Shown: one piece after another, positions 27,204 to 64,000 of the stretch
How positions within the stretch are numbered: position 1 is the stretch's first letter
How the letters are laid out: every line of letters starts with the position of its first letter
DNA from: Balanoglossus misakiensis
Lineage: Eukaryota > Animalia > Hemichordata
Reading direction: 5' to 3'
Length of the DNA stretch: 64,000 nt
Assembly (NCBI GenBank): GCA_040954595.2
Contig: CM082593.2
Coordinates: 3,489,434-3,553,433, forward strand
Made by a program: the position numbers and the translations under genes
The notes under the pieces: generated by a model
What the model was told of the DNA's origin: nothing
Seen by the model: the letters and a program-made list of their open reading frames with translations, nothing else
The model's database searches: none

Positions 27204-29071
27204 CAATTCGTTTTCCAGTGACGTCAGCTGGGTCAAAACCACTAGGATTGCCGTTTACCACAAAGAATTTACCCAGGGGGCTGTTTGCTTCGAATAACGG
27301 CACACTGAAGGTAAACAGAGGAACACGTTCCAATGTCTTGAAATAACCAACGCAACCGTCGTACCATCTGCTCTGTATTCCTGCAAGAGGTGCGTTTGAT
27401 TACTAGTATATCATGAATTGTAATGATGTATTTTCTCGGTTTCAAATATCTACAACAGTTTTAAAGAGTTATAATTTCACCATCAAAAACCTCCAAATTG
27501 CATTTTTCTTCGTTTGGTTCGACTAAAACCGCTAACAAGATAGACATAGGGCCTAAGCCTTATGCAACATAATAGTTTAGTCAACTAAACCATTACCTAT
27601 TCCTGTCGTAGGGCGACCAGAATCTTCGTGAAGATAGCAATTTCTATAGTCGTCGAATATGATGTAGCATTGTTGATCTGCTTCCTTGCAGACTACAAAA
27701 AATACGAGATTAAATAAAAGATGTCTTTAACATAGAGTGTCATTATTCTAAAATGAAAACAGGTGATTAACTCATGCTCATGGGTCATGCTCATGTCGTC
27801 TCGTAAATCCTGGGATAGCTGAGAGGGTATCTTCGAAGTTGCTGTTGTGAAAAGAAGAAGCCAGATCACAAACCCGCAGCTGTTTGCTGCCACACGTAGC
27901 CACTTCTTCACATCGCGCGTGTTCGATTTGTTGCTCATCAGCTGTTAAGGCCAATGTGTATACATACTAAGTAGTGGTGTAATAAACTTACTTTCTTCGA
28001 TCAAATCCCGATGGAAGCCTTGAATATTACCCTCTTTATCTCTGAAAACAATAATCGATACTTTGAGACTAATTAAAATAGTGTACAGCTCGGTAAATAT
28101 ATATGCTTCAGCTTGTCGCACGAAAGCAGATTCGACCACATCACCAATGCTTCAGCCAAGCTTCCAGGTGAGTCCATGAGTGAATTGAACACCATTTTGC
28201 TGCTTGCTTGTGCCTTTCACTGCAATTTTCACCACGCGTTGATGACAATACAATCGATATCTATGATATCGAAAATCTATAAATATTAATTTCCCCCAGG
28301 TGTTCCCCTATTACGTCCACTTTTCAACACCAAAGCCCCGTAACATGTATTAGACAGTTTACGTCAATCGATAAAAAAAGCTCAATATTCGTCGACTTTT
28401 GCGAACCCTTCGTTCTATTTTATCTATTCAGTTATTTCGTTTCAAGTTGGTGACAGCTGTTCATAGAATGCTACGCATGCGCAGCAAAACAGGTAACTTA
28501 CAGGTAGTCATAAGGTTTACCGACCCCTAAACCAGTGGCAAAAAGCCAGGGCTCATGAAAATGGTTTAGTCCTTCAGTTTCTTCCACTTTGCCGTTGGCG
28601 GCGGCCTTATCGTCCTGTGAGAAAGGCGAAATGTGAATGCCCTCAGAATTTTATAGTTAAAAGTGAGAAAGGGCCTCGCGTATAGTTAAGTCCCTTCAGG
28701 TATATTCAGGGAATACCAAACAAGGTGTAGAACGCCATCTCGTGATGGCCTAATTTGCTCTGTCTGCCTGCCTGTCTGTCTGTCTGTCTGTCTGTTTCTC
28801 CCCTCTCTTAATGAAATGAAATATTTGTAAGTCTGTGTAATACTTACCATAAAGTATCCAAACAAGTTAGGAAAAGCAAACGTTCCTTGAGCTGCAAAAT
28901 TATCAAAGCCATTCTTTTATCATTCACGTCTATATGAAGACTTATCAAGCTATTTGTTACTACAAGGACAGAGTAGCTAAAGTTTGGTATTAGTAAACGC
29001 ATGTGACCTTAGCGATTTAACTCACCTGCAATGAGCACAATGAAGATGAAACTCCTAGGGTTGGTCTTCAT
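27204..29071 (-). CDS. Secreted SBP_bac_3 (HisJ/ArgT-like) substrate-binding protein, paralogue A; only exons 1-6 present (interrupted or truncated by the satellite)
   Basis: Exons 29071-29026, 28891-28848, 28614-28502, 28041-27992, 27692-27597 and 27380-27204, all GT-AG and in frame. They encode MKTNPRSFIFIVLIA...GKPYDYLDKEGNIQGFHRDLIEEICKEADQQC...RWYDGC...ERVPLFTFSVPLF...DVTGKRIG. Intron positions match paralogues B and C. Confidence 0.85.
28758..28796. repeat. (CTGT)n-type microsatellite in intron 2 of SBP paralogue A
   Basis: ctgtctgcctgcctgtctgtctgtctgtctgtctgt. Confidence 0.85.
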
Positions 29072-30417
29072 ATTACCTGGTGTAGACATTTGCTGTAGAC
29101 TTGCTATCGATGGCGTCCAACCTATGTTCACAATTGCGGGATGCGTGTAATGCACTGAAGAGGTCAGGCCAGGACGCAGACAGGGGCATGGTCAGTCAGT
29201 CGTCACACAGTACACGTTTGAAAGTCCAAGGACCGGGAGATAGTGCGGGGTCAAATCTTCTTAATCAGCAATTACTCGTGTGGTCACATGAATGTCACCC
29301 CTTTGAATCATGTAGAGAAGACTGCACAATCCTGCTTGTATTAATATATTGAACGACAGATCTGTTTTCAGCTTTCCTTCGATCCATTTATTTATAAAAT
29401 GCTGCATTTGTTTCAGTTTACGTTACCATTTACCATTCAGCCAATCAAAAGTTATGTTCTTGTGACCAAAGATATGAAGATTGGCCCTATACAGATAGGC
29501 CGGATGGTGTACCTTTTCAAATCTGTCTCGCGAGATCACGCAATGAGCAGGAAATCATCTACTGGTATTCCTCGATGCAATTGCCCAAACAGCCTCACAT
29601 TGTAGTTAGATTAGCATACACGGCAAGACGACGGATTTTAGATCTGAGAAATGGGGGTCAGAACGACACGGGCACGAGACAGTCTACACGCAGACGTCGC
29701 CACCCCTAGACTAAAACATATTCCCTCTAATGAAAGGTAATAGCAGACGGCAAAACCAACTTGCAAATGTCTATCAATTCTAATACATAGGGCAACGATT
29801 ATCGACTTAACAGTAGGACTCCGTGACCATTTAATAAATTTTCACTGTGATTCAAATGTTTAGTATCCCCTTCGGATAACTATGCGGAGAGACCAAATGG
29901 AGGAGGCAATGATTGTCGTAAACAATTGTGGGGTTTTATTGAGCAAAGTAGTATCATTGGCGAATAAGATGAACACCTGACGAGTCCATTAAAACTTTAA
30001 AGCTCTTTCAAATCTTACAGCTTCAAGCAATAAACAATAACTGAGAAATATATCACCAGTTTAATTACATGTACAATGCCAATGTATCCATAAGAATTCC
30101 ATCTCACTGAAAGATTAACTCAGGCTTAATGATTGTGCGGTCTGTATGTTACATTATTCTCCAAAATATACCCTACGTCACATCAGTTATAATCACAGTC
30201 ACACTTTAATGGAAAAGAACCTTTGGCTTATATTCCGCGTTAATTATCAGTCTATTGCCTCCCAAACAGATAATTTGAATGTCAATACTCAGTCTGTCTG
30301 AGAAGTGCCCTATGAAAGCTGAATGCAATTATTTAATTGGCCAATCACATTGTTCGACACTTGAGAGCAGAAACTCCAATCAATGCACTGTTGGTCCGTT
30401 ACGTCCACATATAGTCG

Positions 30418-32469
30418 TTACACGATGCAGTTCGGGGTTCCTCCTGGGAAGAAGAGAAACGAAATTAGCAGCTGTTTTGCGCGAAGTTTTTTCCACTCTC
30501 ACATGGCCCTAGTTCTATCAAACATGGGGTTCGAGTTAGAAATCTTCCATACCGATTCGTGTACTACCCACCCAACCATTTACATATCGCTAACAAAACT
30601 TACCGTGCTTTGTCTCAGCTGACTGGCAGAGTTTGTAGTACTGGCCGTTTTCTTTGATACGACCCAAGGCGGCGTTGAACCATTCTACTGCGGGGCTTCC
30701 CTTCTTGAACATGGTATGCACGGCAACTGATTGGTCTTCGGAACCGCACTCAATTCCCGGACCCACCGTCACCAGATCGTCGATGTTTTCGGGCATGGCT
30801 TTAACTGGTGTGAAAATGGCGTCCAGCTGGAAAAGTAGAAAGCTCCATGAGCTGCCAAATTTCACTTATGTTTCCCCAACAACAAAATACATTCGTGGAG
30901 AATTATAAAGTTTTTCATCAGACTGAAAGATTTTTACAAACGGAATTGTAAGGTCGTGCAGGGGTCATGAAAATGGCCTTTGACGGGGTTCTTGTTCAAA
31001 TTTTCACCCACCTCTTTATTTCTGAGAAGGGTGACGAGTTTGTACATGTGCTTCAAATACACCTTATTTCCTGGCTCCAAGGAACCTATGTTCCCCACGC
31101 GACCGTCACGCGCAATGCAGTTTTCGTCAGCCGACCATCCACTCAGGAATCCTGACGAGGAAGAAAACAGATAAAAAATTACATTTCTAAACAAGAAAGT
31201 ATTAACAAACTAAAGGCGTTACTGATTGTGTGTACAGTCAAACATGTCTATATTATATATAGCGGCCAGTCAAGAGACTTTATGACAATTGGTGTTTTAG
31301 ACAGGTTGCCTGTATAGACGCCCCTTCCAGATTATCGGATGACAAACGGGTAAGGTGCGTGCACAACCTACCGATTCGTTTTCCAGTGACGTCAGCTGGG
31401 TCGAAGTTGCTAGGGTTACCGTTTAGCACGTAGAATTCGCCGAAGGGGTTATCCGACTCGTAAAGCGGCGCACTGAAGCTGAACAGAGGAACGCGCTCGG
31501 GAGTTTTGAAGAATACCATGCAGCCGTCGTACCATCTTCCTAGTATACCTACGATTGAAACAAGTGGGTGTTAATCTGAAATGTAAAATTAACAGTACGA
31601 GGATTGGGATACTGTACAAGCATTACCCTCCCAAGGGTACTTAACGTTTCATTGCAACTTTATATACACACGTGTTACTTGCATATGACGTACCTACTCC
31701 TGCTGTAGATCGACCAGATTCTTCGTGAACATAGCAATTGTTGTAATCGTCAAACATGATGTTGCATTTTTGACCGGCTTCCTTGCAAACTAGAAACGGG
31801 AGAGAATAAGTAGAAAAATTTCAGTAACATAGATGTCATTAATTTGCTGCAAGTAATCGAAGAATGGCTTCATAACGGGTAAAATCTAGTCACTTACTTT
31901 CCTCCATCAAATCCCTGTTGAATCCTTGGATGTTACCTTCCTCGTCTCTAAAAACAATAATGTACATTTTGAGACAGTGTGTGATTAAACTGAAAGACTT
32001 CAGCTATGGGAGAAAGCGAAAAATGGAAATAAAAATTCAGCCCACAAAGGTGAGAGCAATTAATCTTTAATCAGTGCTAATTAAAGATTTTGACTTATCA
32101 AATGGTAGACCTACTAAGTAGGTTCCGTTCTCAGAAGAATGGCAGGCAACTTACAGGTACTCATAAGGTTTACCGTCACCTAAGCCAGTGGTGAACAGCC
32201 AGGGCTCGTGGAAATGGTTGAGACCGTCGCTCTGTTCCGTTTTACTCTTAATGGCTTCATGGGCCTGTGACAAAATGAAATATGTACATGTATGCCATCT
32301 GAGTCTTGCTATGAAAACTTCAGCGGTCAATCAGGTGTTGTAGACAATATCTTTGTGTTCCGTTGAGCAGCGAGAGGTATTTTGGATAGCTAATCATGTC
32401 GTGAACATCGTTTGACTAATTTCGTCTTGTTCTGTTTTTATCACAGAAATCGTTAAATCTCTCTCTCCG

Positions 32470-32500
<31 letters not shown>

Positions 32501-32745
32501 GCGCCATTGTAGCGTCAACAAATATGTAATACTCACCACAAAGTATCCCAACAGGTTAGGAAACGCAATTGTTTCTTGAGCTGCAAATGTATGGGTATAC
32601 ACTAAGATTCTGTATGAAGTGTTATACTACTTGATACATTTTCGGACATAATCGACATCGTGAGGAGCACCGAATAAAACGTCTGCAAATTGAACTCACC
32701 TACGATGAGTGCGATGAACGCGAAAATTCCCCATTTGGTCGCCAT
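30418..32745 (-). CDS. Secreted SBP_bac_3 (HisJ/ArgT-like) substrate-binding protein, paralogue B; 9 exons, about 303 aa
   Basis: Exons 32745-32700, 32580-32537, 32264-32155, 31947-31898, 31789-31694, 31548-31372, 31151-31012, 30826-30604 and 30443-30418 total 912 nt in frame. Signal peptide MATKWGIFAFIALIV; motifs KPYEYLDEEGNIQGFNRDLMEEICKEAGQKC, TPERVPLFSFSAPLY, DVTGKRIG and WFNAALGRIKENGQYYKLC. Confidence 0.88.
32459..32500. repeat. (CT)n microsatellite in intron 2 of SBP paralogue B
   Basis: ctctctctccgtctctctctctctctctttctctctctctct. Confidence 0.85.
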
Positions 32746-33020
32746 GTTGTCAAGGTGTAGTTTTACCTGCGCCGACAGTGTTCGGACTGTACTCAATTTG
32801 TTTTGTGGACAGAGTGTGGCCAAAGAGGTCAAACTGGGGCCCAAGGTTAGACACTAACACAATGTACATTCAAAAGTCCAAAAGACAGATAGATAGTGCG
32901 GGGACATCTTGAAATCAGCTTGATCAGCTATTACCGGTCTGACCTGATAACGCCTTTGTATCACTCGGGGTGACTTGGACAATTTCTAAGTTGATCATAA
33001 CAATGGTATTGATAACTCAC

Positions 33021-33235
33021 CGTGTTCTGATTCTGCATGGTGGCAGATTCTGTCGTACCGCCCATTCGTCTGGATGCGTTCGAAGGCTTGGTCGAACCAA
33101 TTGAGAACCGAGCTCCCAGTTCCGGTAATCACGTGTACAGTGATGTCACAAACTCCACACTGAATCCCTGGCCCTACACACAGTCCCTCAAGAAAGTGTC
33201 ATCAACACCATCACCGGCAGGAAGATGCCATCAAC
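33021..33235 (-). pseudogene. Orphan, frameshifted copy of SBP exon 8 (relic of a fourth paralogue)
   Basis: AG acceptor and GT donor are intact. Reads VDGIFLPV...(frameshift)...VGPGIQC...SSVLNWFDQAFERIQTNGRYDRICHHAESEHG. Length is 215 nt versus 217 and 223 nt in the intact paralogues; no neighbouring exons 7 or 9 were seen. Confidence 0.8.
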
Positions 33236-33765
33236 CTAATCATCACTTGAGAGTTACATAATCCGTAGGCAAGCGGTCGTGGTGGTCGTAATGGTTGAAG
33301 CCAACGTGGAGTCGACAGACTGGTCTGTGCAAAGAATGCATGACACATGCCTTGGAACTTCTTTCTTTTATACTCCTCTTCATCTAATAAATATTCATGT
33401 AACTTAACACCTGGCGTAATTATATCGCTGCATGATTGGGCCTTGAATAAGTGACGTATCGGATCGCCGAGTGCTCGTCCAATCTATCCTTTGCGCAACT
33501 TGCACAAGTTCGCGGGCGATTTGCGTTTGGTTCTGAGTGTCTATGTATTCTGTTTTGGTGATTATTACACAAAGCGAAAGATATATTTCAACTGCTGTAG
33601 TAACGTTAGTTAAACTTTAATCAAACACTGTGACGTGATTACATTACAAAGTGTCGAAAAATCTAATAAAATCAAATACACTTTCGTCGAATTAATGGCA
33701 AAGTCCTTGGCTCTTATCTTTCCCATGCCGCGAATTTCAAGGCAAATATATCCGTGCGTCCAATT

Positions 33766-36191
33766 CTAAAGGCAATATGGATTTCCGCCTGCAAAACAAT
33801 GGAAAAGAGTTCAAGCTATTGACATTTTCCCAATAACACAGAAGTTGAAATTGGCCCATGACAGCCTTTTCCCCGCAAACATTTAGATGTGGTGTTTATG
33901 GCCGACAGTGTGCTCGACTTTAATTGACATTGAATTAAATGGAATCGGAGATACTCATTTGTTATTTATCGTAACAGTGAAATAAAAACTGACCGTGTTC
34001 TGCCTCTGCTTTGTGGCAGATTCTATCGTATCGGCCATTCTCTTTGATTCGCTCGAAGGCTTGGTCGAACCAGCTAAGAAGAGAGCTCCCCTTTCTGGTT
34101 ATCACACGCATAGAGTTGTCATTGCCGAAGTCGCATTCGAAATCCGGTCCAATCTCCACTATCCCGTCAATGCCATCGGCGACGTCTCGGGGAAAGAAGA
34201 CTGCGTTGAGCTGATAAATAGAAATGGGGGTATCAAGGCATTATTTTTATTTAATGTTCAACACTGTGTTTTGTACGTAGATGGATATTTTTCTTTAAAA
34301 CACTGAAAAAATTATGAGTTCATACGCAGGATTGAATTCTCAACGCATCAACATTTATGACGGTGCCCTCTGTGTTCTCACCTGTTTATTCTTGAGGAGT
34401 GTTACTAACTTATCTTCTTGTTGCAAGTAAACCTTGCTTTCGCGTTGCAACGTATCGAAGTGCTTGACACGAGCGTCACGGTCCAGACAACGTTCGTCAG
34501 CCGCCCAGCCGCTTAAGAATCCTTGGGGAGAAAAATACACATGAGCCGTGAATGTGCCTCTATCATGGGTGCGCGTTTTCCAAGAAAAGTATGTAGAGAT
34601 GTTTATTCAAATGTGGATCGCTTAATGCACTTCTACTTGCCTATCCTTTTCCCGGTGACATCAAAGGGGTCGAACCCGTCAGGGTTGTCCTGCAACACGT
34701 AGAAACGCCCGGATGGGGTGTACGTGTACAGGCCCACGCTGAAGTCGACCACTGGGACCCGTTTTGGAACCCGCAAGAATGACAGGCAGCCGTCGTACCA
34801 CCTGCCAAGCAAACCTATAGAAGTAGAAGAGTTCAAAATGAGCTGAAAGTCACAAAAGTCGACCCAATTATACGAGCACGATAATGTAAGAGTGTCCTTA
34901 TTTTAAAAAAAACACGATATGAAAATATGGTCATGATTGAAACAAGCGAATCTCTCAGAAATATGCAATGTTTTAAATACCTGGACCAGCTGCTGCCTGT
35001 CCACTTTCCTCGTGTTGATAACAATTGTTGTAGTTGTCAAACATCACCACGCATTCTTTCCCGGCTTCTTTGCAAACTAAAAGTATTTACGTGACCAGAT
35101 TAGTAAATTTTATTTTAGCCATAGGGCTAGCAACTACTAGTTCTAAAATTATGAACTAACTTTATAACAAATAGTATATGCATCGATGTTATCAAACGTC
35201 CTCACAGATTTCCCACACTACGGTCTATTTAAACATGTAACATAATAGTATAGCGTGAAGTTGATAGTCCACGTGACTAGCACGTACAGGCTGACTAGCA
35301 CATAACATTTTCGTTTCGCAAAATCAAAGGAAAACATACTTTCTTCAACGAGATCCACGTGGAAGCCACGAAGATTTCCGTCTTCGTTCCTGAAATAAAT
35401 AACTTTCTATAAGGAGCCGTGGTAGTATTGTACTGTTCTTTTCATATGCAAATGTGTTACTTTTTTTACATCTCAGTTTGCGTAACACGGTGATCTCATA
35501 CGAATGGTTTACATCTTATACTAGTATATTTTTGCTCTGAACTATTAAACTGAGTGCAGATTTCCTAGCCAGAAAGGTTGCCATGGTGCTGAACTTTGAA
35601 CTGTAAGCAAGGTTTTTGTACCATACGGATGTATAAACAACTTACAAATACTCGAACGGTTTGCCTACGGCTAGGCCAGTTGAAAACGACCAGGGCTCCT
35701 TGAAGTAGCTGAGTGAGGATTTAGGTCCTTCATCTGATTTGCTGAAAGGGCTTTCGTCAGACTGCAGGTGGAAACATTATACATGAAAGTGATTCCCCAA
35801 ATGCTTCTGCATAAAATGTGTCCGTCTATCTGCATTTTTCATTCTGTTCTGTCGCTGTTTCTCTCTGTAAGTCTGTATAGTACATTGTACATGCAAGTCT
35901 GTTTGTGCGTGTTTCTCTGTCAGTTCCTCCCCTGTCATTCCCAAAATAACAGACTGTCATATTTTCTACTTATAAATAAATAAATAAGTTGTCTTACATA
36001 CCGCGAACAAATAAGGCAGAAGGCTGAATGCAAACGTCTCTTGAACTGTAAAGATATAAAAATTACGAACATTAAACTTAAATCAGTATTTAAAAAAACA
36101 AAGATAGAAATTCATTCTTTCAGAATTATAAACAAGACTCACCAGCAGCAGAGACGATAAATGCAATCAAAATGATTACTGTTCTCGTCAT
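33766..36191 (-). CDS. Secreted SBP_bac_3 (HisJ/ArgT-like) substrate-binding protein, paralogue C; 9 exons, about 302 aa
   Basis: Exons 36191-36143, 36045-36002, 35761-35646, 35389-35340, 35076-34981, 34814-34641 (GC donor), 34521-34382, 34210-33994 and 33788-33766 total 909 nt in frame. Motifs GKPFEYLNEDGNLRGFHVDLVEEICKEAGKEC and ITRKGSSLLSWFDQAFERIKENGRYDRIC. Confidence 0.88.
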
Positions 36192-37172: not shown

Positions 37173-37517
37173 TTATTTCTGTAAAACTGGATACGTGTTT
37201 TGGTCCATCAGTTCATCGATCTTGTCTTGAAGCATTTCGATGATCTCGCTGGAAATAAACACATGGGTCTCATCCAAATCCTGAATGATGAACTTCTTGC
37301 CGAGGATATTGTTCTCGTCCAGGTGAAGGAGGAACTGTTTCATCGTCGGGTCACTATGATGAAAATGAAATAACATCATTAAGACATTATGAAGTTAGTT
37401 CGCAACAACGACGAATGAGTCTTGCAGCAAGCCCTGCGAATTAGGATACCAACGACCGGAAACTCAACAGCGATCTACTTACCACTCGACCAAGACGCCT
37501 CTTGTAACGTGCACCAT
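37173..37517 (-). CDS. GTF2H5: General transcription factor IIH subunit 5 (TTD-A/p8), 71 aa
   Basis: Exons 37517-37483 and 37353-37173 encode [71 protein letters not shown], the typical Tfb5/TTDA sequence and length. Confidence 0.95.
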
Positions 37518-38144: not shown

Positions 38145-40858
38145 ATGTCTTTTGCAACGCACGCTTTCCGCAGGGGCCTTGCAACTGGTGTTGTGAGAAT
38201 GGCCACCATCAAACATGTGGCTGTGATTGGTGGAGGATCGATGGGAAACGGTATCGCCCAGGTGGGTACAATTTCAAGCCAGAGGCCATCAATCATCATG
38301 ACATCTTGTGGGTAATTAAACTTCACCTATCAGCTTTTATGCTAAATTATTCTTTTCTGATCAAACTTGAATCAAAATTTGCACCCAGAGTTGCAATATA
38401 ATCACTCAACTAGATATAAAATAATCAAAAGTTTGCACTGTGCGCACATCTTAAAATGCTTAACTGGTAATTTTCAATCAAAACTTTAATGTAACAAACA
38501 TGTTTCCTTTGTTGGTCATGGTTCATTGAGATAGTCATACACCATCACACATCACACATTATAACTTCTGTCCATGAGGCAAAATGTGGCTGAATGAAAG
38601 CTGCTATGCATACTAGGACATGTAACATTATGTAAGAGGATTTTGTGATATAAGCACTGACAAAACATCATGGCATGTTCGTCTTTATGATTCTGTATAA
38701 TTTATCACTAGGCACTATTGTTCCAATCATCATGAAGAATATGTTAATTGTTACATGTCAAATTTATTTTTTATTTATTTATTTCCAATGTAGGTTACAG
38801 CACAAGCCGGTTATCAGGTGACAATGGTGGACCAGACAGATGAGATTCTACAGAAATCTGTTGGCGCAATCAACAAGAGTTTACAAAGAGTTGTCAAGAA
38901 AAAGTTTGCCAATGATCCAAGTGTAAGTTTAGAGAAGTTGTTAAATAAAAATCGCCCTGATTGCAAGGTCCATTTTTAGTAACATAAATTAAATTGTGTA
39001 AAATCCAGACATTTAAAAAAAACTTGTTTTGCAGAAAGGAGAAGAGTTCATCAAGGGCATCATGGGAAATATCTCAACCAGTACAAACGCTGCAAATGCA
39101 GTGGCTGATGCAGACTTGGTAATGGAGGCAATCATTGAAAAGATGGACATCAAGAAAAAAACTTTTAGCTGAGCTTGACAAAGCGGCCAAGGAGTAAGAA
39201 CATAACAAATTAACTTATGCTTGAAAATCATTTTTGATAGAAAACTGAATCACTAAATTTTCAGAACAGGTTTTTTTGCAACTGATGCAAGGATAAAGGA
39301 TTTCTCTTTTTTCCTTCACAGAAGTGCAATTTTTGCAAGCAACACATCATCATTGTCGGTCACAGAAATGGCCAGTGTCACGCAGAGACAGGACAGGTTT
39401 GGTGGTTTGCATTTCTTCAATCCAGTGGCAGTCATGAAACTAGTCGAGGTTAGTAAAAGTGTCAATAACACGTCTGATGCATAAATTGAAAATGGCTAAA
39501 AGAAAATTGGTTGAATTATTTCCAGTTCGCAGATTCAGTTTTCTTAGAATGGAATGGTTTGCTTCAATTGAATAAATTTATTCCTCATGGAATATTATTT
39601 CCATGTGCTTTGACATTTTCACAGGTTGTGCGGACACCACAGACAACAGATGCAACATTCAACACTTTGGTGGAGTACTGTACAAAGATTGGGAAAACCA
39701 CAGTAGATTGCAAGGTGAGATAATTGAAGGGTTTCAGAGGGTTTCTTAATTGAACTTGTTTCTAACCATCTCTCTGCAGTAAACCCAAACCAAACAGCTA
39801 CAGATGAACATTTACTCTACCCTGGGTATATGTTTTTTTTCAGGACACTCCTGGCTTCATTGTAAATCGACTGTTAGTTCCTTACATGATGGAGGCTATC
39901 AGATTGGTCGAGAGAGGTGAGTCATGTGACATTATTTTGCCTTTGGAGGATACTGATAATGACATTTGACTTTTTAAGCAATTTATGTTGACAAATATTT
40001 CATTTTAGTGGGAGGGAAGTAATATGCAATTTCAAAGCAACCACCTGCTTCTCAGTACATGTACTATAAAATTTTGCAACTTGATCAATTGTGTAACTTC
40101 TTAGTTTCTGTACTTTTCTCTGCACCTGCATATAAGATTTCTTGCCTAACATTGCAACTGCTTATAACTGCTTCATCTCTATAATTTCACAATATGACTA
40201 ATAGTTAAATTCTTGCATGCATGCAATCTGCATAATCTCGCACTCTAGGTGACGCTTCGCCAAAAGATGTTGACACTGCAATGAAGTTGGGCGCTGGCTA
40301 CCCCATGGGACCAATTGAACTATCGGATTACGTTGGCCTGGATATAAACAAGTTTGTCCTCGATGGTATGTTGTTGTTCTAAATTTTCAATTTCAGGTGA
40401 TGCAACTTTGCGTGACGTGGATTTGGCCATGAAGCTAGGGGCTGGGTACATCATTGGCCCGGTTGAATTAGCAGATTTTATTGGTCTTGAAGTGTGTAAC
40501 TTTGTCATACATGGTAAGTGCATTTTGGTGTAACGCACCATTGTCCATTGCAAGTTGTCGTCATCTTTGGAAAAATAAACCCTCATGACTTTTTCCACAT
40601 TTTTTTCTCAAATTTTCATCAAGAACTGCTGACAAGTGAAACTTATTTCCATTAGGTCTAAATTAAAGAGGGAAATGTAAGAAAATGTGTGAAAATGACA
40701 AACAAAAATGGATGATACCAAATTTTCTTTCTTTTGTTGCAGGTTGGCACGAGAAATACCCAGACAATCCACTCTTCAACCCAAGCCCACTGCTGGACAA
40801 ACTTGTCAGTGAAGGAAAACTCGGAAGAAAGACTGGAGAAGGCTTCTATAAATATTGA
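38145..40858 (+). CDS. HADH: Mitochondrial 3-hydroxyacyl-CoA dehydrogenase, copy 1, with a +1 frameshift in exon 3 (pseudogene or assembly error)
   Basis: Exons 38145-38261, 38794-38922, 39035-39193, 39322-39448, 39625-39714, 39844-39916, 40249-40365 or 40397-40513, and 40743-40858. Motifs [39 protein letters not shown] and [12 protein letters not shown]. Exon 3 is 159 nt versus 158 nt in copy 2. Confidence 0.85.
40397..40513 (+). other. HADH: HADH copy 1 alternative exon 7b (tandem duplicate of exon 7a at 40249-40365)
   Basis: 117 nt, AG/GT flanked, same phase as 7a; encodes [40 protein letters not shown]; lies only 31 nt after exon 7a. Confidence 0.8.
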
Positions 40859-41103
40859 AAATAACATCTCATCAATATGTTTTGGGTTCAAACAAATACA
40901 ATGTATATCAAATAAAAAGTTTAAAACAGTGGAATAAAACACTTAAAGAAATGTCCGGTGTGGTACACATATTGTAACTTTCTAAATTTATAATCGTGTT
41001 TTATTCCTATCATCACATTCTGTTCAAAAACGGGGTTTTTCGAGGCTTTACTGTCGACAAGACGCGCATGTGAGTGAGCTGTTAATTTCCAGAATGCTGC
41101 ACT

Positions 41104-41265: not shown

Positions 41266-43546
41266 ATGTCTTTTGTAACTCACGTTTTCCGTCGAGGTCT
41301 CGCAACCGGTGTTTGGAGATTGGCGGCGATAAACCATGTAACTATTATCGGTGGTGGTTCCATGGGGAACGGTATCGCTCAGGTTAGTTGCAATACTTCA
41401 CTACTAACTTTGCACCTCCAACCGCAGATGTTGTCCGTAGCATTACACGCCCTGCCCCCACAGGTCAATCGTACTTTTGCGTGGCAGGTATATGTTTAGC
41501 CATCGCCTTCACCTGTCTCGACGTGCCTGGTACCCACCGCAAAGGTAACACAGCCCTTACAGTTTATGTAACTTCACATGTAGGTGACAGCACAGGCCGG
41601 TTATCAGGTGACAATGGTGGACCAGACAGATGAGATTCTACAGAAATCTGTTGGAATCATCAACAAGAGTTTACAGAGAGTTGTAAAGAAGAAGTTTGCC
41701 GATAATCCAAGTGTAAGTTTAACTTTCATTTTTTTTTCACAAAGGATTATTATCGAGGCCAGGAAAAATTGACCTCTGAGAACCTGACTTCTGGCATTAA
41801 GGATCTCCAGCACTATGAACTTGAATGTTATTACAGATTTTGACATCACTTATAAAGGAAATACTTTCAACCTTAGCAATATTACACCCTAATACCCGAT
41901 TTGTTTTGTTTCCAGAAAGGAGAGGAGTTCGTCAAAGGAATCATGGGGAAAATCTCAACAAGTACAGATGCTTCAAATGCAGTGGCAAACTCTGACCTGG
42001 TCATTGAGGCAATCATTGAAAACATGGACATCAAGAAAAAGCTTTTCACAGACCTGGACAAAGTCGCAAAAGAGTAAGGATAGAACAGGATTTCTTTTTA
42101 AAGTTTAAGAAGGCAGTTGTTCCTAATCAGATTATAGACAAAAAGCATGAACTGCTAAAAATGCCTGCAATCCCTCTCATTCACAGAAATACTATTTTCG
42201 CAAGCAACACATCATCATTGTCAGTCACAGAAATGGCCAGTGTCACACAGAGGCAGGACAGGTTTGGTGGTTTGCATTTCTTCAATCCAGTACCAATGAT
42301 GAAATTAGTTGAGGTATGGAAACTTCAATTCTGACGCTGTCAAACGAATTACATTTCCACTGTCTAAAATAGAATCCAACCCCCACCCCCGACAGAAGAA
42401 ACTGACCAGTCCCTAAATTCAATGCTTTCGATTCTGTAGGTTGTGAGGACTCCACAAACATCAGACAGTACATATAACAGTCTGGTTGGATATTGTCAAA
42501 AAATTGGGAAAACATCAGTGAACTGCAAGGTAAGCAAGATCAAGCAATGGTGAAATTGTCAGACAAGCATGTGTAAATCAGTAGATTTGCTGGAGGACAG
42601 GTTGGGAATAAAATTATGTTCCCATTGAACACATTCAAATAGGCACGTTGAGTCATCACATAACAAAAGTATACAAATGTTTCTCTACTGTTTCAGGACA
42701 CTCCAGGTTTTATTGTAAATCGTCTTTTGGTCCCATATATGATGGAAGCTGTGCGGTTGGTCGAAAGAGGTGGGTATGTTATGTGCAGGAAAACCTGCCC
42801 AGAGAGATTTCACGGTTGCACTGCTCAGATACTGATGCAAGATACTGATCATGGTATTAACAAAACATGTATTTATTTTACATAACCATCCAATCATTTC
42901 ACGTTCCCTGCTGTCTGTCTCCCCATGTACCAGGTGATGCCTCCCCGAAAGATGTTGACATAGCAATGAAGTTAGGTGCTGGCTACCCCATGGGACCAAT
43001 TGAGCTGATTGACTATGTCGGTGTGGATGTATGCAAATTCATTGTTGAAGGTATGTTGGTGTGTTTAGTTTTTAAATAGAAGTGTTTTTCTACTTTTAAG
43101 GTGATGCCAGTGTGCGTGACGTGGACACTGCCATGAAACTGGGAGCTGGCTACCCCATGGGGCCGTTCGAATTGTTGGATTTAATTGGTACTGACGTTTT
43201 TAACTCTTCCATTCAGCATGGTAAGTAGGGGGGGGGGGAGCCCTTCATGTAACGCAAGAGGTTGGCTTAAAAGCCCCATTAGCTGCCCTTATCCCCATTA
43301 TCTTCATGGTTTTACTTTCAAAATTAGATGGTTCATTTAAAAAAGCTTGCTGATGGGCACACACAAACGTATTATCAACCTCTGATTGTGGCTGTACATA
43401 ACATACACTGCCTTTACTTTTCTGTTGCAGGTTGGCATAAGGAATACCCTGATAACCCACTCTTCAATCCAAGCCCGATGGTGGAAAAACTCGTCAGCGA
43501 GGGAAAACTAGGAAGAAAGACGGGAGAGGGCTTCTACAAATACTAA
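41266..43546 (+). CDS. HADH: Mitochondrial 3-hydroxyacyl-CoA dehydrogenase, copy 2, intact (about 308 aa)
   Basis: Exons 41266-41382, 41584-41712, 41916-42073, 42187-42313, 42440-42529, 42697-42769, 42934-43050 or 43101-43220, and 43431-43546 total 927 nt with exon 7a. NAD-binding GxGxxG and catalytic [13 protein letters not shown] are present. Confidence 0.93.
43101..43220 (+). other. HADH: HADH copy 2 alternative exon 7b (tandem duplicate of exon 7a at 42934-43050)
   Basis: 120 nt, AG/GT flanked, same phase as 7a; encodes [41 protein letters not shown]; lies 50 nt after exon 7a. Confidence 0.82.
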
Positions 43547-45242
43547 AACACAATGTGTGATTTCTCCACCTCAGTGTGGTGTGTACAGTTTAGAATGAAG
43601 TGATCATATCTTGCACTTGTTTCCTTCCAACTGTCCTAGTTTTTGAAAAGCACACATTTTGATTGGCCTTATGGGTATAGATATCTGGAACTGACCGAAT
43701 GGTCATTATCAATGCAAATAAACTTTAAATGGCTTTATCTTTTGTGTCTCGTTGATATTTATATACATTTGTAATTGGGGCCCAAATGTTTCTTCATACG
43801 CGCTGCACTGCACTCTGGGTAATCCATGCTGTGCAGCGCCCTCAACATATGAAAACAGTTTTCTTTCGGTCAACCAAACTACTAAGCACAAGCACTATAC
43901 GTGTATTTCCCATGAATCCCTACGTGATCTCTTCCCCTTTCTGCAAAAGAATAAGTCAAGATGGAGTACTTCACATCATTAGATGTTCAGGGAATTTCCC
44001 AGGCAACGACTATCCCTGCAGTTCTTTATGTATTTGGCAAAACAATTTTAATTGTACTCGACTTGTCTGCACTTTTGAGGTAGCCTTGCCCTTATCATAT
44101 CACCTATAAAACTTGATACAGAATCGAATTATTATATGGTTGTTTATCTATATGGGGGCATTGTTCATTCTATCAAAACGCCAAATCTTGTTGATCTGGT
44201 TAATTTGTTGACTTATACTATATATCTTTAATCTATAAGCACCACTCGTAAACCACAGCGGTTGTAAACTGTTATCTATAGATGAAGATTACTCGTCTGC
44301 TAGAACGCATCATGGGGTCGTGTCCCCAACCATGTCCTTTCTCTGACCCATAATTTTCAGACTGTACGTTGATCTTTGGCTACACGTACCAGGTATCAGC
44401 GATGTTTTATCTGTCAACGTTCAAAGAAACATTTGTTTATATTCTATTATGACCGAAATTCGTTTCTTGGCTTTTGAAATAACCAAATTATGTTGTATAA
44501 ATGGGTGGTTGATGTCAAAGAATTTTTTCTTCTTTAATAACCAACTTTGGAATGTATAAGTGGCATATATTCTCAAACTTTTACTCCTCTGAGATTTTGC
44601 GATTTTGCAGAGTCTGTAACACGTCCTGAAAATTTAACATTGCTGGATATAACCATGCCCATCTGTCACAGAATTAACTATCACACAAGTATCTCATTGC
44701 AATCAGTTCAGTCGTCACAGATGACTTCAAAGTTACGTAGATGCCTTAAAAAGCTAACCGAAACAGAAAATCGTCTCCCGGGGCATGTACAACGGAATTA
44801 TTTCGCTTTCGTACAAAACGAAACTATGAGTTAAAAATAAACGGTGTCCCAGGGGTTGCATCAAAAGGCTGTAAGCGATCAAGCATAATACAAGGGGTTT
44901 AATTAGTCAGGTGACAAGCTTACCTAAGTTTTCACAAGAACACTGCCAGTCAGTTTTATTTTTACACACAGCCGTTGGATTTGGGCCCAGTTTTCTTTAT
45001 ACGAACTTATGATCGGATTCGGTGGAGTGTTTACAGCATTCTCGCCAATAACAAGTGTGACACTCTACTTCTACGTATTATGACATATTAAACTACGGTC
45101 TTTTATTAGAAGTTTGCAATCTGACAGGAATGGGGAAATGTCGATATATCGTGACAACAAAAATGTTCGCGGCCTGCAGAAATCGGAAAAGGTGTTTATA
45201 TATGCAGTGTCACTGGGGCTAGCTTGAGTTAAAAATACCATT

Positions 45243-45291
45243 ACGAAAATGTTTCCGACTTTGCTTACAGCAAAGTTGGAAACATTTTCGT
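45243..45291. repeat. Near-perfect inverted repeat (23-bp arms, 3-nt loop)
   Basis: ACGAAAATGTTTCCGACTTTGCT-TAC-AGCAAAGTTGGAAACATTTTCGT, with a single G:T mismatch. Confidence 0.9.
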
Positions 45292-47861: not shown

Positions 47862-50800
47862 ATGAAGGTCCTCTTTGTTGTCCTGGCCGTGGCCTGTGTT
47901 CATGGCATGGAGGTGAGTATACATTTTGGTCATCGTTGATTTATATCACAATGAAATGAAAAAATCTGGGCTTCTCAGTGGACATGAACTTAACAAAAGT
48001 GCAACACGGGAACGACGGTGAACTTCATAGAGTTCCGGTCGTAAAAGTCAACGCGGTCGTAAAAACGATATGAATTTATCGATCGAGGACAGAAAAAACA
48101 TCCTTTAGAACACGATATCTAGGCCACCAAGTTTCTTGCTTTGTCAATGGTTACTTGTACCGTACGTTGCATTTAGCCGAAATTCTATCCGTGTTTCGTT
48201 TCCATTGGTCGGATTAACCAATATCTGTCCTCGAGTACATTCTATAATGAAGATTAATGTTTAAAACTGCAAGAGGCTCTAGTTAGTCGTGAAAGTGTTG
48301 TGCACTTTTTGGAACATGCCCAATTATGATCATAATGTATAGGTCTTCTGGAGGTTAGTGCGACCTTGATTGGATATTTGCTGACTGTGCAAGCTTGTCA
48401 AGGCTCCTCGGACTCGAGCATTTACACACAATGATTATATTAAAATGTGACACTAAATCAATCAAATAACAAACAGACCACTAAACCACCCTCACTTGTA
48501 AAAGTCACCGAAGCGTATACACCAGTACGTCACCCCATCTTTCACTGGCCGCTTTCCACACAGAAGGGTTTACTTGTTTCCTAGGGTCACATCCTAGGGT
48601 CACCTGTTGCTTCTAGCCTACCCGTTCACTTCTCCTTGTGAAACCACAGTCACTGTGGTGAAACCAATTTGTTGCATTACACAGATCTATTTACAGACAA
48701 ATATTCAACTAATATACTGAAACTGACTTCTGTTTTCGGGACATGAATCGTTCAAGCGCTCACATCGATTGTATACTAGTATATAGAAACCATGGAGGTA
48801 CTGAGATAGAAACATACACGGAGTTTGGTCACCTAGGCGATAAGCCCTAATTCGCACATGCGCAGTTAACTTCGAGACTTCGGAGGAGGAGGAGGATGGT
48901 GGGGTTCTTCATCAAGTGATTATCCGGAGATTAAACTTGGATTTCATTCGTAGCACGAGGTGTTCCTGTAGTATCTTGTTTTGTAATGATCAGCGGACGG
49001 TACTCGTACATCCGATATGCACGATCGGCTCTGACACGATAGGAAACGGTGGTAAAAACTTCAGTTGTCTTTGGCCAATCGTAAGTGTCCCGGGACAGGA
49101 ACATGACAGAGCGCGCAGCCCGGGGCGCGCAGTCAGGAAATGTACATGACCGCATCTATGGGTGGATTCTATCAATGTGTCACAAACAATCTTTCTCTTT
49201 ACGCCAAAAATGCTTAAGTTAATCAATTGCCTTGCATGATATACATTTTTAAATAGACACAGAGCAAACTCTGTGTTTTGGTTTTATATGTAATGGCTGC
49301 CGGGTTTGTGCCAGAGGGCGCTATTGAAGAAAACTTAATTAAAGCAAAACAAAAGGACATCCATTCCTTAGCTTTATACTTGCAGTTTCTTTTCTCGTTA
49401 CCTCAGTCCCAGTTCATAAATATAAGGTGACCTCATCCCACTTGCTAAAACACAATGCCAAAGTTTGTTTGAATTGGTCAATTCAATTGTTATTAGCTTG
49501 TTGTATTGCTTCATAACAATAAAAACTTCTTTTGTTTTCTAGTCAAAGCTCAGACAAGAAGATGTTGTATGTAAGTACTTTGCATTTGTTTTGTATTTAG
49601 TTTTCATTACAGTACATAGAACCAATGTCATCTTTAGTATGATATTGTCAAATGTCCACCATCCCCCAAAGTAATGTACTTATTTTGCATCTAACCTATT
49701 TGGGTTTAAAGAACTTGAGTACCTGACAATTAGACTTGGAAATAATCATGTCCTTTAATCTTCATGATCATTTTCATGGCACAGCAATTATGGGTTCATC
49801 AGCAAAGCTCACCCAAGGTGATCTTGACACTATTGTACCTGATATATAAAGCACTTATTTTTAGGAACCACATCTGGGATAGGAATGCATGCTCAGCGTT
49901 TTATAATAACAAAAATCTGATAAAATTCTCATTAATGTATCAGTCTGTGTGAGTCGCGCATTGTTCATACTGTACCTACTTAAACTTTGAACACTGATAA
50001 AATGATGAGGTGTAAATGCCCCAGTGGCTTGACGAATTAATGGCTCAGTTGCCCCTTAACGGAGACAAGCACGAACTGACGTTTGATTGCTTTATGTCCT
50101 GATATGGACATGTTGATGTGTCATTAGCTTCTTAAAATGTCAACGTGGAGTTTAATCGGGGGAAGATATAAAGATGCAATGCGTCGTCATATTGACTTTA
50201 CCACATGCCAAAACTTGACAAAGTGCCATATCATGGTGTTGGTTGACGATAAGGAGTATTCAGTCAATGACCTTTTCGGGGGGGGGGGGGGGGGGGGGCA
50301 GAATAGGAAGCTGGGAGCATAAAGTGCAAATGATCATGCATGTAAAGAGGTCAGCCAATAGAATGTTCAATGGAAACTTGGATCTAGCTGAAGCCAGAAA
50401 GAGTTTCACAACAGATTGCAAACTTATGCTTGCATTCTCTCCTCAGTTCCAGAACCATGTTGGAACGAAAAGTCAAAGATACAGACCTACACTGTCAACG
50501 GTGCCCCAGTTTTCCACTCGGACAGTTTTGTGCCGAAATGCGACGACAACGGAATGTACTCACCAACCCAGTGCCACGGAGAGGAATGTTGGTGCGTGAC
50601 GGTGTGTGGAAGTGAAGTTCCCAACACTCGCACGACATCCTGGCCAACGTGTAGTAAGTGTGCATTTCTGCTGGTCATAATTTGATACTTATGGTGTTGT
50701 CTGTGAAAGAAAAAAATTGTGTCACAGTAAATTTACAGTTAGTTTTGGCAGAAAACTGACTGAAACATGGGATGTATGTTCAGCCGAGTAAAGAGATATG

Positions 50801-53800
50801 ATTTCATATATAACATCTTACAACCTCAGGTGAAGAACACACCCCTCCATGCACTGAAATGTCAAGAACCAGAGAAGATGTTCAGTGCGACAAACAGGGA
50901 TACTTCAAGCACAAGCAATGTGATGGCGAGGAATGCTTCTGTGTTAATAAGTGTGGAACTGAGATCGAAGGAACACGCACGAATGAAAACCCTCGGTGTA
51001 GTAAGTAGTTGCATTTGCGTGCTTTGACAAGCCTTCAAAACATCCTTCAAAAGATATTCTCAGATATTCTTTAAGTGTTTTTCTTGTTATGTGCTGTTGA
51101 AGGCTTTATACAAGGGTATAAATGTGGTAAAAAGAAATTATAAAATCATGTAAAAGTCAAATGATAGGTCATAGGAGTCCTATACAGTTGCAGCATGGGA
51201 AATTTCCACTTCACTGTGTCTGTTCATTCACCACATGTTTGTGTCGATCGACAGAGGCCCTCTTTTACCGCAACACCGAAAACGAAGAAGAGCAGATCGA
51301 TGACATCACGAGGCTGAGCAGCACCTGCGCCGACAACTCACACCCAGACGTTTGCGACAGCAGCGTTTGCGACAGCATGACCTGCCCGGGATTCGAGAAC
51401 GCCAGGTGCAAACCCAACAGGTGTAAGGGGTGCGTGGTGGAGTTCTACAACGACAACGGTGTTAAAGTCCATTGCAATGATGGTATGTTGGAGCTTTGTC
51501 ACCCCAGACTTTGAATGAATGTGGTTTGGTCCTGCGGTCCCCTCTTGATTAAACTGTCACAAAAAGATTCTGCACTTATCCTTTGACTAGAGGGCTATTT
51601 AACGTTCTGTATTTGACTTTCAGCTAAAATTGGAGTGTGTCCAACGACAGATTATGTGAAATTCCTGATCGGAAACAAATGTACGACAAAATGCGACTCT
51701 GACCGCGATTGTAATGGCGCACTCAAGTGTTGTAGCAGTGGCTGTGGAACCGAGTGTGTGCCACCAAAAATGGGTAAGTTTATGTCATCCAGTTTAGACT
51801 GGTTCAAATTTTTTCTTAGGACTGCATTCAAAACTACTGTTTCAAGTACCATTGTGAGGGTACAATTTTTGGTGTGTGACTAAAAAATGATTTTTTCTTG
51901 ACTCAGACAAACATGGCAGTTGCCCACTGCCTATCACCATTGAAGATGAAACCTGCACTGAGAAGTGTAACATTGACAACGATTGCTCACGTGATGAGAA
52001 ATGTTGCTCCAATGGATGTGGCAAAGTCTGTGTCACAGCCAAACCAAGAGGTAAGCTGTCTAGACAAGAAAATTTACTCACAACTGCACATATAATTCTG
52101 CATCAAAAGGGTAGAGGTCCATAATCGTCACTGACATAAATATCTTGATTAAAACGTGATGACATTATTAAATTCATGTATATTCACTTGAAGAGGTTTA
52201 AGTGTCTACACAACCCATCAATTTCTCTGTTTTGAATCTTACAGAGAAGTCTGGTACCTGCCCCTCTAGAACAACTCTCCAATTCAGTACATGTGACACG
52301 GAATGCAGTACCGACAACGACTGCAAAGGCACACAGAAATGCTGCCAGACGGTCTGTGGAACCATGTGCACTGCACCAGAAACCAAAGGTAAGCAGTCAA
52401 CTGACAAAAGAGAGCTGGGGAAGTTGAAACAGCCAGACAGCCGTGGATAAGAAAAGGAATTTGCTCACCCCAACATTCATGAGTACAACTGATCTACTTA
52501 CAGATACCCCAAACAGACCCCGCAACTCAGAAGAGGTGTGTCCAGCCGTTCCCAGGGGAACCATGGGTAGCTGCGTAAATCGATGCGGAGAAGACAGCGA
52601 GTGCGAAATGGGAGAGAAATGCTGTTCCAACGGCTGTGGCACTCGATGTATGAAAACTGTCAAGAAAGGTGGGTTTATCTTGGATATCATCTTGACTTTG
52701 AGAAGATGTGACAGCGATACTGTCTATATAGGTTTGCATGTATCATGAGTATCCTAAGTTCAGTAAAGTTCTACCAAAATACTGACTAGGCTCTGCTTAT
52801 ATACCTCCACTGTAGCCACACCGCCATGCTGGGCCGAGAAGGAGAACACCCCGACAACCATGTTTGGTGGCATCTCCATGCCAGTGCTGGGCACCCACTA
52901 CCCGACGTGTGACTCAGAAGGATTCCACACACCCAAACAGTGCGACACCTCCAGCGGAATCTGCTGGTGCGTTGACAGCTGTGGTATGCCCATCAACAGG
53001 ACCCACACAACTGGATCATTAAACTGTGGTATGTCTTGTGATTTTGTCCCTTGGTTTTTCAGATTAATTTTGCAAGATTAATTTTGATGTCAAATTACTT
53101 GAAATTCTGTCTGAAATTCTAAAGTTATGAATAATTAAATTTACATTGAGATGTTTAATTTAGAATATAATAATATCCCCCTCATATTGAAAAAAACATT
53201 TTGTGATACCTTTGCAGAAGCCAAAGAGACACCATGTCACGACAGACGACGGGATCTGATGACCCTGGCTCCTCTCCTGGGAAGATTCCGTGTTCAGTGC
53301 ATGAACGACGGATACTTTGAATCCAGACAGTGTCACGGATCCACCTGCTGGTGCACAGATAAATGTGGCAATGAAATCATCGGAACTCGTGGCCATCTGA
53401 CACAAATATCATGTGGTAAGTTCCTGTTCTGTTCTGTTTGTTGATGTATATTATCTTGACATATCATATCTAGACATATGCAATTGGAGAGCAAAATATG
53501 TGCAAAAGTAAAAGTTCAACTCTCATTTTTTCAAATCTTTCATGGTCTCTGTTTTCTCAATCCCAGAATGCACCAATGGAGAGCGTGCTTGGAAGTGTGC
53601 CAAGAATCCGTGTGATGGTGTCACATGTTCTGCCTTCCCTGATGCTGTCTGCAAGCCCAACATGTGCGGTGGTTGTAAAGCTGAGTTCTGGAGGGACGAC
53701 GAAAAAGTCAACTGTGAAATGAGTAAGTTGTTGAAATACTAACTTTTAGTTACTTTATAACCCTGGCATTTTCCTGTGCGTGTGATAGACAACAGATACC

Positions 53801-63919: not shown

Positions 63920-64000
63920 GTGAGTAGAAGATAATTGCCGATTACTGGTTTACCGGTATAACTCCCATATACATATGCAAATTAGCTGGAGGAAAGTAAT

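Follow-up and report, generated by a model that had tools for sequence, protein, structure and literature searches.

We tentatively propose, at not quite an even chance, that two neighbouring genes of the acorn worm Balanoglossus misakiensis, B and C, encode predicted secreted Venus-flytrap clamps with eight cysteines, derived from bacterial HisJ/ArgT-type binding proteins, which would grip a carboxylate-bearing zwitterion, likely betaine- or ectoine-like, as extracellular carriers, scavengers or sensors. They belong to a family that is old, apparently unstudied and common to several marine invertebrate phyla. The domain itself is already annotated in databases, and the locus is one among hundreds of copies.

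Within the 64-kb stretch of DNA analysed here (the window), three paralogues, A, B and C, lie side by side on the minus strand. Gene C (36191-33766) encodes 302 aa in nine exons (36191-36143, 36045-36002, 35761-35646, 35389-35340, 35076-34981, 34814-34641, 34521-34382, 34210-33994 and 33788-33766), with 48% identity to the Ptychodera protein P0001 over its length. Gene B (32745-30418; 303 aa, 56% identity to P0001) likewise has nine exons (32745-32700, 32580-32537, 32264-32155, 31947-31898, 31789-31694, 31548-31372, 31151-31012, 30826-30604 and 30443-30418). For gene A (29071-27204) there are exons 1-6 only (29071-29026, 28891-28848, 28614-28502, 28041-27992, 27692-27597 and 27380-27204), encoding 175 aa in a frame that is open at its end; most of lobe 2 and the C-terminus are missing. 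B and C have identical intron phases (1,0,2,1,1,1,0,1), of which A repeats the first six, the sixth being that of the donor following exon 6. Introns carry AG at the acceptor and GT at the donor throughout, apart from C intron 6 with its GC donor, and none of the three genes contains an in-frame stop. KD19 hydropathy is maximal at the N-terminus (1.7-2.2) and does not exceed 0.86 beyond residue 30; judged by hydropathy alone, all three proteins begin with a signal-peptide-like segment, whereas no transmembrane segment is present in B or C. The two complete proteins contain eight Cys apiece. The original prediction of three tandemly expanded paralogues with shared introns, an N-terminal signal peptide and an extracellular location is thus borne out, the last as a hydropathy-based prediction. 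With the Ptychodera homologue as tblastn query, 14 matches were obtained in the window and none in 100 shuffles, so chance similarity can be dismissed.

Synonymous exceeds non-synonymous change between the copies (dN 0.19 and dS 0.97 for A-B, dN 0.38 and dS 1.95 for B-C), which shows purifying selection. Gene A has likely been interrupted or is in decay: its exons 7-9 were not found anywhere in the window, and 14 residue changes are specific to A versus 4 to B. It is bounded by an 88-bp satellite array (1-27044; about 54 + 253 copies, 96-97% matches) that starts 160 bp past A exon 6. A fourth copy of exon 8, overlooked so far, is present as a frameshifted relic of 215 nt on the minus strand (33021-33235), with AG acceptor and GT donor. 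Its likeness to gene C reaches about 40 nt into intron 8, which rules out a retrocopy. On the non-satellite side, the neighbours are Tfb5, an intron-containing 3-hydroxyacyl-CoA dehydrogenase (3HCDH) and a Cys-rich WAP/VWC/thyroglobulin gene; no permease or ATPase gene occurs among the 10 neighbouring ORFs scanned, the satellite occupying the other side.

The predicted match to SBP_bac_3 (PF00497) was obtained: P0001 scores 37.8 bits (gathering cut-off 26.4), and all 104 family members match at E<=0.1. Taken singly, the window exons score under the cut-off, with 2/9 matching; exon 8 gave E 0.004 for gene C and E 0.018 for gene B, both sub-threshold. Structure was predicted for the Ptychodera homologue, 56% identical, in place of the window's own proteins (pLDDT 87.8, pTM 0.79). 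This model is best matched by LAO, ArtJ and Tv2483 at Z 18-19 (up to 19.1, with an rmsd of 4.0 across 224 residues), and a two-lobed type II periplasmic-binding fold is predicted for the family. All top fold and profile matches are amino-acid binders. The closest relatives of the window genes are acorn-worm proteins (48-57% identity, measured against Ptychodera), and the family search returned 203 representatives at E<=1e-10. Word-based searches recovered little: exon 8 alone gave 0/10 scored candidates, and the 104-row alignment only 9 proteins, most of the family being missed. The ESM Atlas contained generic bacterial SBP_bac_3 clusters only.

With HisJ/ArgT(LAO)/ArtI/ArtJ (PF00497; TIGR01096) the family shares the fold, the C38-C45 pair (HisJ-type C-x6-C; C38 in 146/148 and C45 in 146/147 domains), Arg77, an aromatic residue at 52, an export signal and the clade, in line with the HisJ/ArgT affinity proposed originally. 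However, identity is only about 20%, and scores fall far under the TIGR01096 and equivalog cut-offs (best 30 bits versus 256 for the three animal proteins scanned). Further differences are the introns of the window genes and the lack of adjacent permease or ATPase genes, six extra Cys, aromatic residues at 71 and 120 (the latter in 110/139 domains), an insertion of 10-20 residues after position 52 and a one-residue deletion before position 70.

Named members come from hemichordates, an echinoderm, a mollusc, an annelid, a brachiopod and a diplonemid. RefSeq models of the same family as B and C exist for Ptychodera flava (XP_070544261.1), Saccoglossus (XP_002733180.1), Amphiura, Haliotis, Lingula and Owenia; names of family members there are automatic ('arginine-/histidine-binding periplasmic protein-like' or uncharacterised). 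If inheritance within animals was vertical, the family is older than the protostome-deuterostome split, because named members span both sides as well as a diplonemid; it was likely present before that split and then expanded separately in each lineage. B and C group with the Ptychodera and Saccoglossus proteins (100/98). In a quick tree built from sequences other than iGluRs, the family falls inside the bacterial HisJ/ArgT/ArtI/ArtJ clade (98 SH-aLRT), which supports a bacterial ancestry. Of the proposed acquisition of an old bacterial gene, the bacterial ancestry therefore stands, but not its specificity to this animal, as members occur in several phyla and a diplonemid; the acquisition is neither recent nor lineage-specific. 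A precedent for the same domain entering eukaryotes is provided by the SBP_bac_3 genes that moved from prokaryotes to Neocallimastigomycota fungi, although those transfers, in the accessible part of that report, are species-level with named donors (PMC11291939), whereas the acorn-worm family is ancient, Cys-rich and multi-phylum. No study of the family was found in a literature search largely confined to journals outside subscription. The accessible parts of the hemichordate genome paper (PMC4729200) do not mention periplasmic, SBP, ABC transporter or the Saccoglossus accession, and 'eukaryot' is absent from the accessible part of an SBP review (PMC8050422).

How the gene entered eukaryotes can be read in more than one way. 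The family is nested in bacteria, yet the diplonemid and other eukaryote-like proteins carry members too. We rate at somewhat below even the chance that a single, very early acquisition founded an ancient eukaryotic family that many lineages later lost, as opposed to a transfer into the animal stem; the bacterial-looking members would then be its sister or a later transfer back to bacteria. The diplonemid and unnamed eukaryote-like proteins lie in the same clade (100/96), and the AU test does not reject a tree in which all presumed eukaryote rows group together (p-AU 0.363). With protostome, deuterostome and diplonemid members, the pan-eukaryotic vertical family that the original prediction had named as contrary to its view is thus partly what we see. 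On the other hand, the best tree, which involves long branches, joins the animals to the bacterial-looking proteins P0065 and P0156 (97/91), leaving out the diplonemid and the TSP1-bearing proteins, and all 8 Cys are common to animals and P0065/P0156 only, protist-like rows keeping at most 4-5. Since all five domains of these two proteins hold the full set, the extra Cys are probably not an animal novelty, contrary to the earlier assumption that they were gained in animals. We infer a bacterial origin of P0065/P0156; the P0156 C-terminus matches GlyGly-CTERM (E 0.19) and MYXO-CTERM (E 0.63) below the cut-offs. Among 21 pattern matches in GTDB, no P0065 relative was confirmed by tblastn, and an exact family-motif scan gave 6 loci with 0 family members in GTDB and 2 loci with 1 family member in metagenomes; the motif being strict, this is no proof of the family's absence from prokaryotes. 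Viral contigs contained no match to P0156 and phages none to P0166, while plasmids yielded ordinary SBPs only (23-28% identity).

A descent from detached iGluR ligand-binding domains is very improbable. iGluR, GLR and GluR0 domains do share the type II periplasmic-binding fold and the carboxylate-binding Arg, iGluR domains reach Z 14-16 (GluR0 17.2), and 8/104 members give weak matches to Lig_chan-Glu_bd (best E 2e-4). Yet B and C are one continuous soluble domain in which the channel segment between the lobes is absent, SBP_bac_3 is matched throughout the family whereas PF00060 is not among the 23 families matched, no iGluR appears in the best 60 of 276 PDB profile matches, and the C38-C45 pair is common to the HisJ clade in which the family nests (in trees without iGluR sequences). 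Profile and fold scores are also weaker for these receptors than for SBP_bac_3 and HisJ-type proteins, and the bacterial rather than iGluR source of the original prediction is supported. Bacterial contamination or an assembly artefact has nothing but the bacterial-type domain in its favour. The exon-intron structure and the orthologues exclude it: the genes carry eight spliceosomal introns whose phases are conserved, lie beside Tfb5, 3HCDH and the WAP/VWC/thyroglobulin gene and have orthologues in two acorn-worm genomes, all of which indicates integration in the animal genome.

The description as free proteins fits B and C but not the whole family. By crude hydropathy, a signal-like segment or a type II anchor is seen in about 78/104 members, and about 30/104 look membrane-anchored. 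Type II membrane anchoring is common among the relatives; one of them ends in a GPI-like tail, and some are tandem multi-domain proteins, in non-animal members fused to TSP1/EGF.

LAO binds the main chain of its ligand through D161, S72 and R77, according to the accessible parts of two reports (PMC7815116, PMC5431781). Among 17 bacterial rows, this triad is present in 6 and Asp161 in 10. In the 139 complete domains of the family, Arg77 is kept in 127, but Asp161 in 12 and Ser/Thr72 in 28, and the full triad (Ser/Thr72-Arg77-Asp161) occurs once; Gly70 is conserved, while the pocket residues vary. In B, C and P0001, residue 161 is Pro and neither Asp11 nor Tyr14 is present; position 72 is Phe in B and Leu in C. 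The acidic second-lobe residue is therefore replaced, as predicted, and an altered specificity is likely.

Gene B and P0001 combine an aromatic residue at 17 with Tyr52, Phe72, Arg77 and Pro161. The sequence of the ectoine/hydroxyectoine binder EhuB (TIGR02995, 461.8 bits) has the same residues as gene B in these alignment columns, which we take to form its cation-pi box. TIGR02995 is also the best NCBIfam match of P0001 and P0002, though far under its cut-off (17.7-26.2 bits versus 190.9 for the animal proteins scanned). EhuB as a sister group was rejected; it forms a separate clade and lacks C38-C45. The likeness is limited to the pocket, and it would be convergent, since EhuB is neither the sister group nor among the best 60 PDB sequence matches. 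Gene C matches in part. The family may bind many solutes, because the EhuB-like box is found in only 18/139 domains and C has Leu72.

According to our proposal, B and C would be secreted and their lobes would close on a small carboxylate-bearing solute, most likely betaine- or ectoine-like rather than a plain amino acid, a ligand class inferred from alignment columns alone. Arg77 would grip the carboxylate, aromatic residues at 17, 52, 71/72 and 120 would cage a methylated or delocalised cation, and four putative disulfides (83-90, 100-123, 184-245 and 285-298 in P0001 numbering) may stabilise the protein in sea water, mucus or gut. As we know of no cognate ABC importer in animals, the closed clamp would need another partner; it may be buffered, taken up or read by some partner, making the protein a carrier, scavenger or sensor outside the cell.

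That the proteins instead capture nutrients or sense chemicals by binding common free amino acids, or short derivatives of them, in a pocket that has been rearranged, as originally proposed, is possible but rather unlikely. In its favour, the sequences and folds closest to the family belong to Arg/Lys/His/Gln binders, Arg77 and Gly70 show conservation, and an acidic residue occurs within positions 160-162 in 58/160 domains; the scarcity of the complete triad, together with Pro161 and the missing Asp11 and Tyr14 in B, C and P0001, speaks against it. Loss of Asp161 would be compatible with amino-acid binding, because CdgH PBPb-I, a precedent for another binding mode, binds arginine without an Asp161 contact in the accessible part of its description (PMC5431781). 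Co-option of the fold beyond small solutes, either as an enzyme or to recognise peptides, glycans or microbial surfaces within mucus or in immune defence, would agree with the large lineage-specific expansions, the variable pocket and the TSP1/EGF fusions. Cyclohexadienyl dehydratase is an enzyme derived from the same fold. We consider such co-option quite improbable, as there is no invariant candidate catalytic residue beyond the structural Asp121 and Arg132, and the buried Arg and two-lobed fold are retained.

The usual view is that in animals this fold serves only within glutamate receptors. A stand-alone family that spans several phyla, has expanded repeatedly and has a remodelled pocket suggests that marine invertebrates handle small solutes (osmolytes, food cues, microbial metabolites) by an overlooked route, and also that a prokaryote-to-eukaryote transfer took place very long ago. 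Being small and soluble, the proteins are directly open to ligand screening, and the scaffold is suited to biosensor design. More speculatively, and in our estimate an unlikely case, a ready-made four-disulfide HisJ-type clamp would have passed from Cys-rich P0065/P0156-like bacteria into the bilaterian stem and given rise to an undescribed class of extracellular analogues of odorant-binding proteins, secreted and membrane-tethered repertoires with which marine invertebrates would capture or sense betaine-type osmolytes and other waterborne cues.

Splicing of the window sequence yielded three minus-strand paralogues encoding SBP_bac_3-type binding proteins, with common intron phases (1,0,2,1,1,1,0,1), in agreement with the original prediction. 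Genes C (33766..36191; 302 aa) and B (30418..32745; 303 aa) comprise nine exons each and are spliced at canonical sites, apart from a single GC donor at intron 6 of C. Gene A (27204..29071) has six exons and is open-ended (175 aa). The predicted proteins have a hydrophobic stretch at the N-terminus only, which fits the signal-like start and the lack of transmembrane segments proposed for B and C, and both of these contain eight cysteines. Identity is 53% between B and C and 68% between A and B, with dN well below dS among the paralogues. A tblastn search with a Ptychodera homologue gave 14 matches in the window versus none from 100 shuffles. Contamination could be ruled out, since the neighbouring genes are ordinary animal genes.

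Gene A is probably a decaying or interrupted copy, because a 27-kb satellite with an 88-bp unit (1-27044; ~307 copies, 96-97% matches, small break at 4796-4803) starts 160 bp after it, exons 7-9 are absent from the 64-kb window, and it carries 14 residue changes of its own versus 4 in B. Between C and B lies a frameshifted relic of exon 8 (33021-33235, minus strand), which retains intron 8 sequence. The ~25 nt preceding this relic (33021-33261 with the relic, minus strand) show weak similarity to the final part of exon 7, as though intron 7 had dropped out, and this may be due to chance. Elsewhere in the window, we found a Tfb5/GTF2H5 (TFIIH p8) coding stretch (37173-37394, minus strand; E 1.5e-21) and two tandem, intron-containing copies of a 3-hydroxyacyl-CoA dehydrogenase gene (38145-40860 and 41266-43548, plus strand; 71-90% alike within the matched stretches). 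A large multi-exon Cys-rich gene (~48800-64000, plus strand) with thyroglobulin-1, WAP, VWC and antistasin modules likely encodes a secreted mucus or protease-inhibitor protein. Two imperfect palindromes are present at 45243-45291 (49 bp, 90%) and 57747-58101 (355 bp, 84%), and the longer one could be a MITE within an intron.

The assignment to SBP_bac_3 was borne out by P0001, a Ptychodera protein 56% identical to B that scores above the cut-off, and by matches in 104/104 aligned family members; Lig_chan-Glu_bd matched 8 of the 104, weakly. For the Ptychodera homologue, a structure was predicted with a pLDDT of 87.8 and a pTM of 0.79, and the top Foldseek rows were mostly LAO. In a wide fold search, Z-scores were 18-19 for Tv2483, LAO, ArtJ and a histidine binder from pneumococcus, 17.2 for GluR0 and 14-16 for eukaryotic glutamate-receptor domains. 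Judged from this model, the fold by itself separates bacterial binders from glutamate-receptor domains only modestly. The sequence profile distinguishes the family from iGluRs more clearly: the best 60 of 276 PDB hits consisted of binding proteins of bacterial type and reconstructed ancestors, iGluRs being absent among them, and the best single-domain hits reached E-values down to 1e-24. The predicted affinity to HisJ/ArgT was recovered in a quick tree of 22 family rows and 42 bacterial rows (two being frameshifted fragments of one locus; no iGluR sequences), where the family formed one group (94) within the HisJ/ArgT/ArtI/ArtJ clade (98), separate from GlnH, TcyJ, GltI and EhuB. The products of the window genes would work like bacterial polar-amino-acid binding proteins. 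They fall outside the HisJ/ArgT transport family itself, as the animal proteins scanned score below its cut-offs and the window genes have lost Asp161 and have no permease nearby, and outside the iGluRs, as they have no channel.

Among 994 candidates, an alignment search with exon 6 retrieved three proteins, auto-named in RefSeq as 'arginine-binding periplasmic protein-like' or uncharacterised; Ptychodera flava accounts for two of them and Amphiura filiformis for the third. An exhaustive profile search gave 552 representatives at E<=0.001, of which 203 reached E<=1e-10, and family members were sampled from the best 150. Twenty of these, picked across the tree, were looked up for taxon; nine had an organism name, comprising eight animal proteins (Saccoglossus 2, Ptychodera 1, Lingula 2, Owenia 2, Haliotis 1) and one from the diplonemid Namystynia. 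In the 104-protein alignment, G73, D121, R132 and eight cysteines are conserved to at least 90%, and the co-presence of the cysteines suggests that they pair as disulfides. Crude hydropathy suggested secretion for 47 of the 104 and a type II anchor for 30; one combines a signal with a hydrophobic tail, and 26 were unclear or incomplete. Metagenome contig L009 contains an exon (521-685, plus strand) from a distant subfamily that shares both boundaries and their phases with window exon 6, to which it is 44-47% identical. The Ptychodera isoform model P0002 lacks exactly the exon 5 segment, consistent with introns 4 and 5 being common. Two eukaryote-like giant proteins (P0078, P0159) combine TSP1 with 5-8 binding domains in tandem; EGF, WWE and ADP-ribosyltransferase domains are also present in the longer one, which is possibly a receptor-enzyme.

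Bacterial ancestry of the family is well supported, and this part of the proposed horizontal acquisition stands; the lineage-specific transfer does not, as the family is old and spans several phyla. In a careful tree of 56 rows picked from 179 domains (no iGluR included), the whole family formed one clade (100/96), with B and C grouping with Ptychodera and Saccoglossus proteins (100/98). We consider one early eukaryotic origin and a transfer specifically into animals about evenly balanced. A topology uniting all 38 rows presumed to be eukaryotic was not rejected (p-AU 0.363), which speaks for the early origin. On the other hand, a 97/91 clade unites animals, other rows and P0084 with the bacterial-looking tandem proteins P0065 (three domains, lipoprotein-like start) and P0156 (two domains, sorting-signal-like end scoring below cut-off), leaving out the diplonemid and the TSP1-bearing proteins. 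From these features we infer that P0065 and P0156 are bacterial. All eight family cysteines occur in 5/5 of their domains, versus at most 4-5 in protist-like rows and at most the first pair in 17 ordinary bacterial rows, a pattern that favours a Cys-rich bacterial source near the animal form. Both proteins are candidates for the donor lineage or for a reverse transfer. Against such a bacterial source, pattern and strict family-motif scans found no protein of their kind in any GTDB genome. Under either origin, the gene is likely older than the protostome-deuterostome split. SBP_bac_3 transfers into gut fungi provide a precedent (PMC11291939).

B and C are real genes with the right fold and bacterial affinity, and new members of a family already annotated automatically in databases. 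No study of it was found in the open literature, though closed journals and further supplements may have one; main-text passages and two supplements of the hemichordate genome paper do not mention it (PMC4729200).

In LAO, the main chain of the amino acid is held by R77, S72 and D161, the side chain is sandwiched by Y14 and F52, and the guanidinium is held by D11 (PMC7815116, PMC5431781); in CdgH, arginine is bound even though the contact to Asp161 is missing (PMC5431781). D11, Y14, S72 and D161 are all missing from B and C. Among the 139 of 162 family domains with all scored columns, Arg77 is present in 127, Ser/Thr72 in 28, Asp161 in 12 and the full triad in one; 110 have an aromatic residue at 120, and 71 combine Arg77 with aromatics at both 52 and 71. 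In the alignment, B and P0001 have an aromatic at 17, Tyr52, Phe72, Arg77 and Pro161, the same residues as EhuB, which is not kin of the family. In EhuB, ectoine is presumably caged by F24, Y60 and F80, with its carboxylate bound to R85; this numbering agrees with the EhuB sequence. By this likeness, the B-type pocket may combine an anion site and an aromatic cage, gripping the carboxylate and the cation, respectively, of a betaine- or ectoine-like zwitterion. The EhuB-like box is found in only 18 of the 139 domains, and C has Leu72, unlike B. Outside the cell, the proteins could act as carrier, scavenger or sensor. A betaine- or ectoine-like ligand would suit osmoconforming marine animals.
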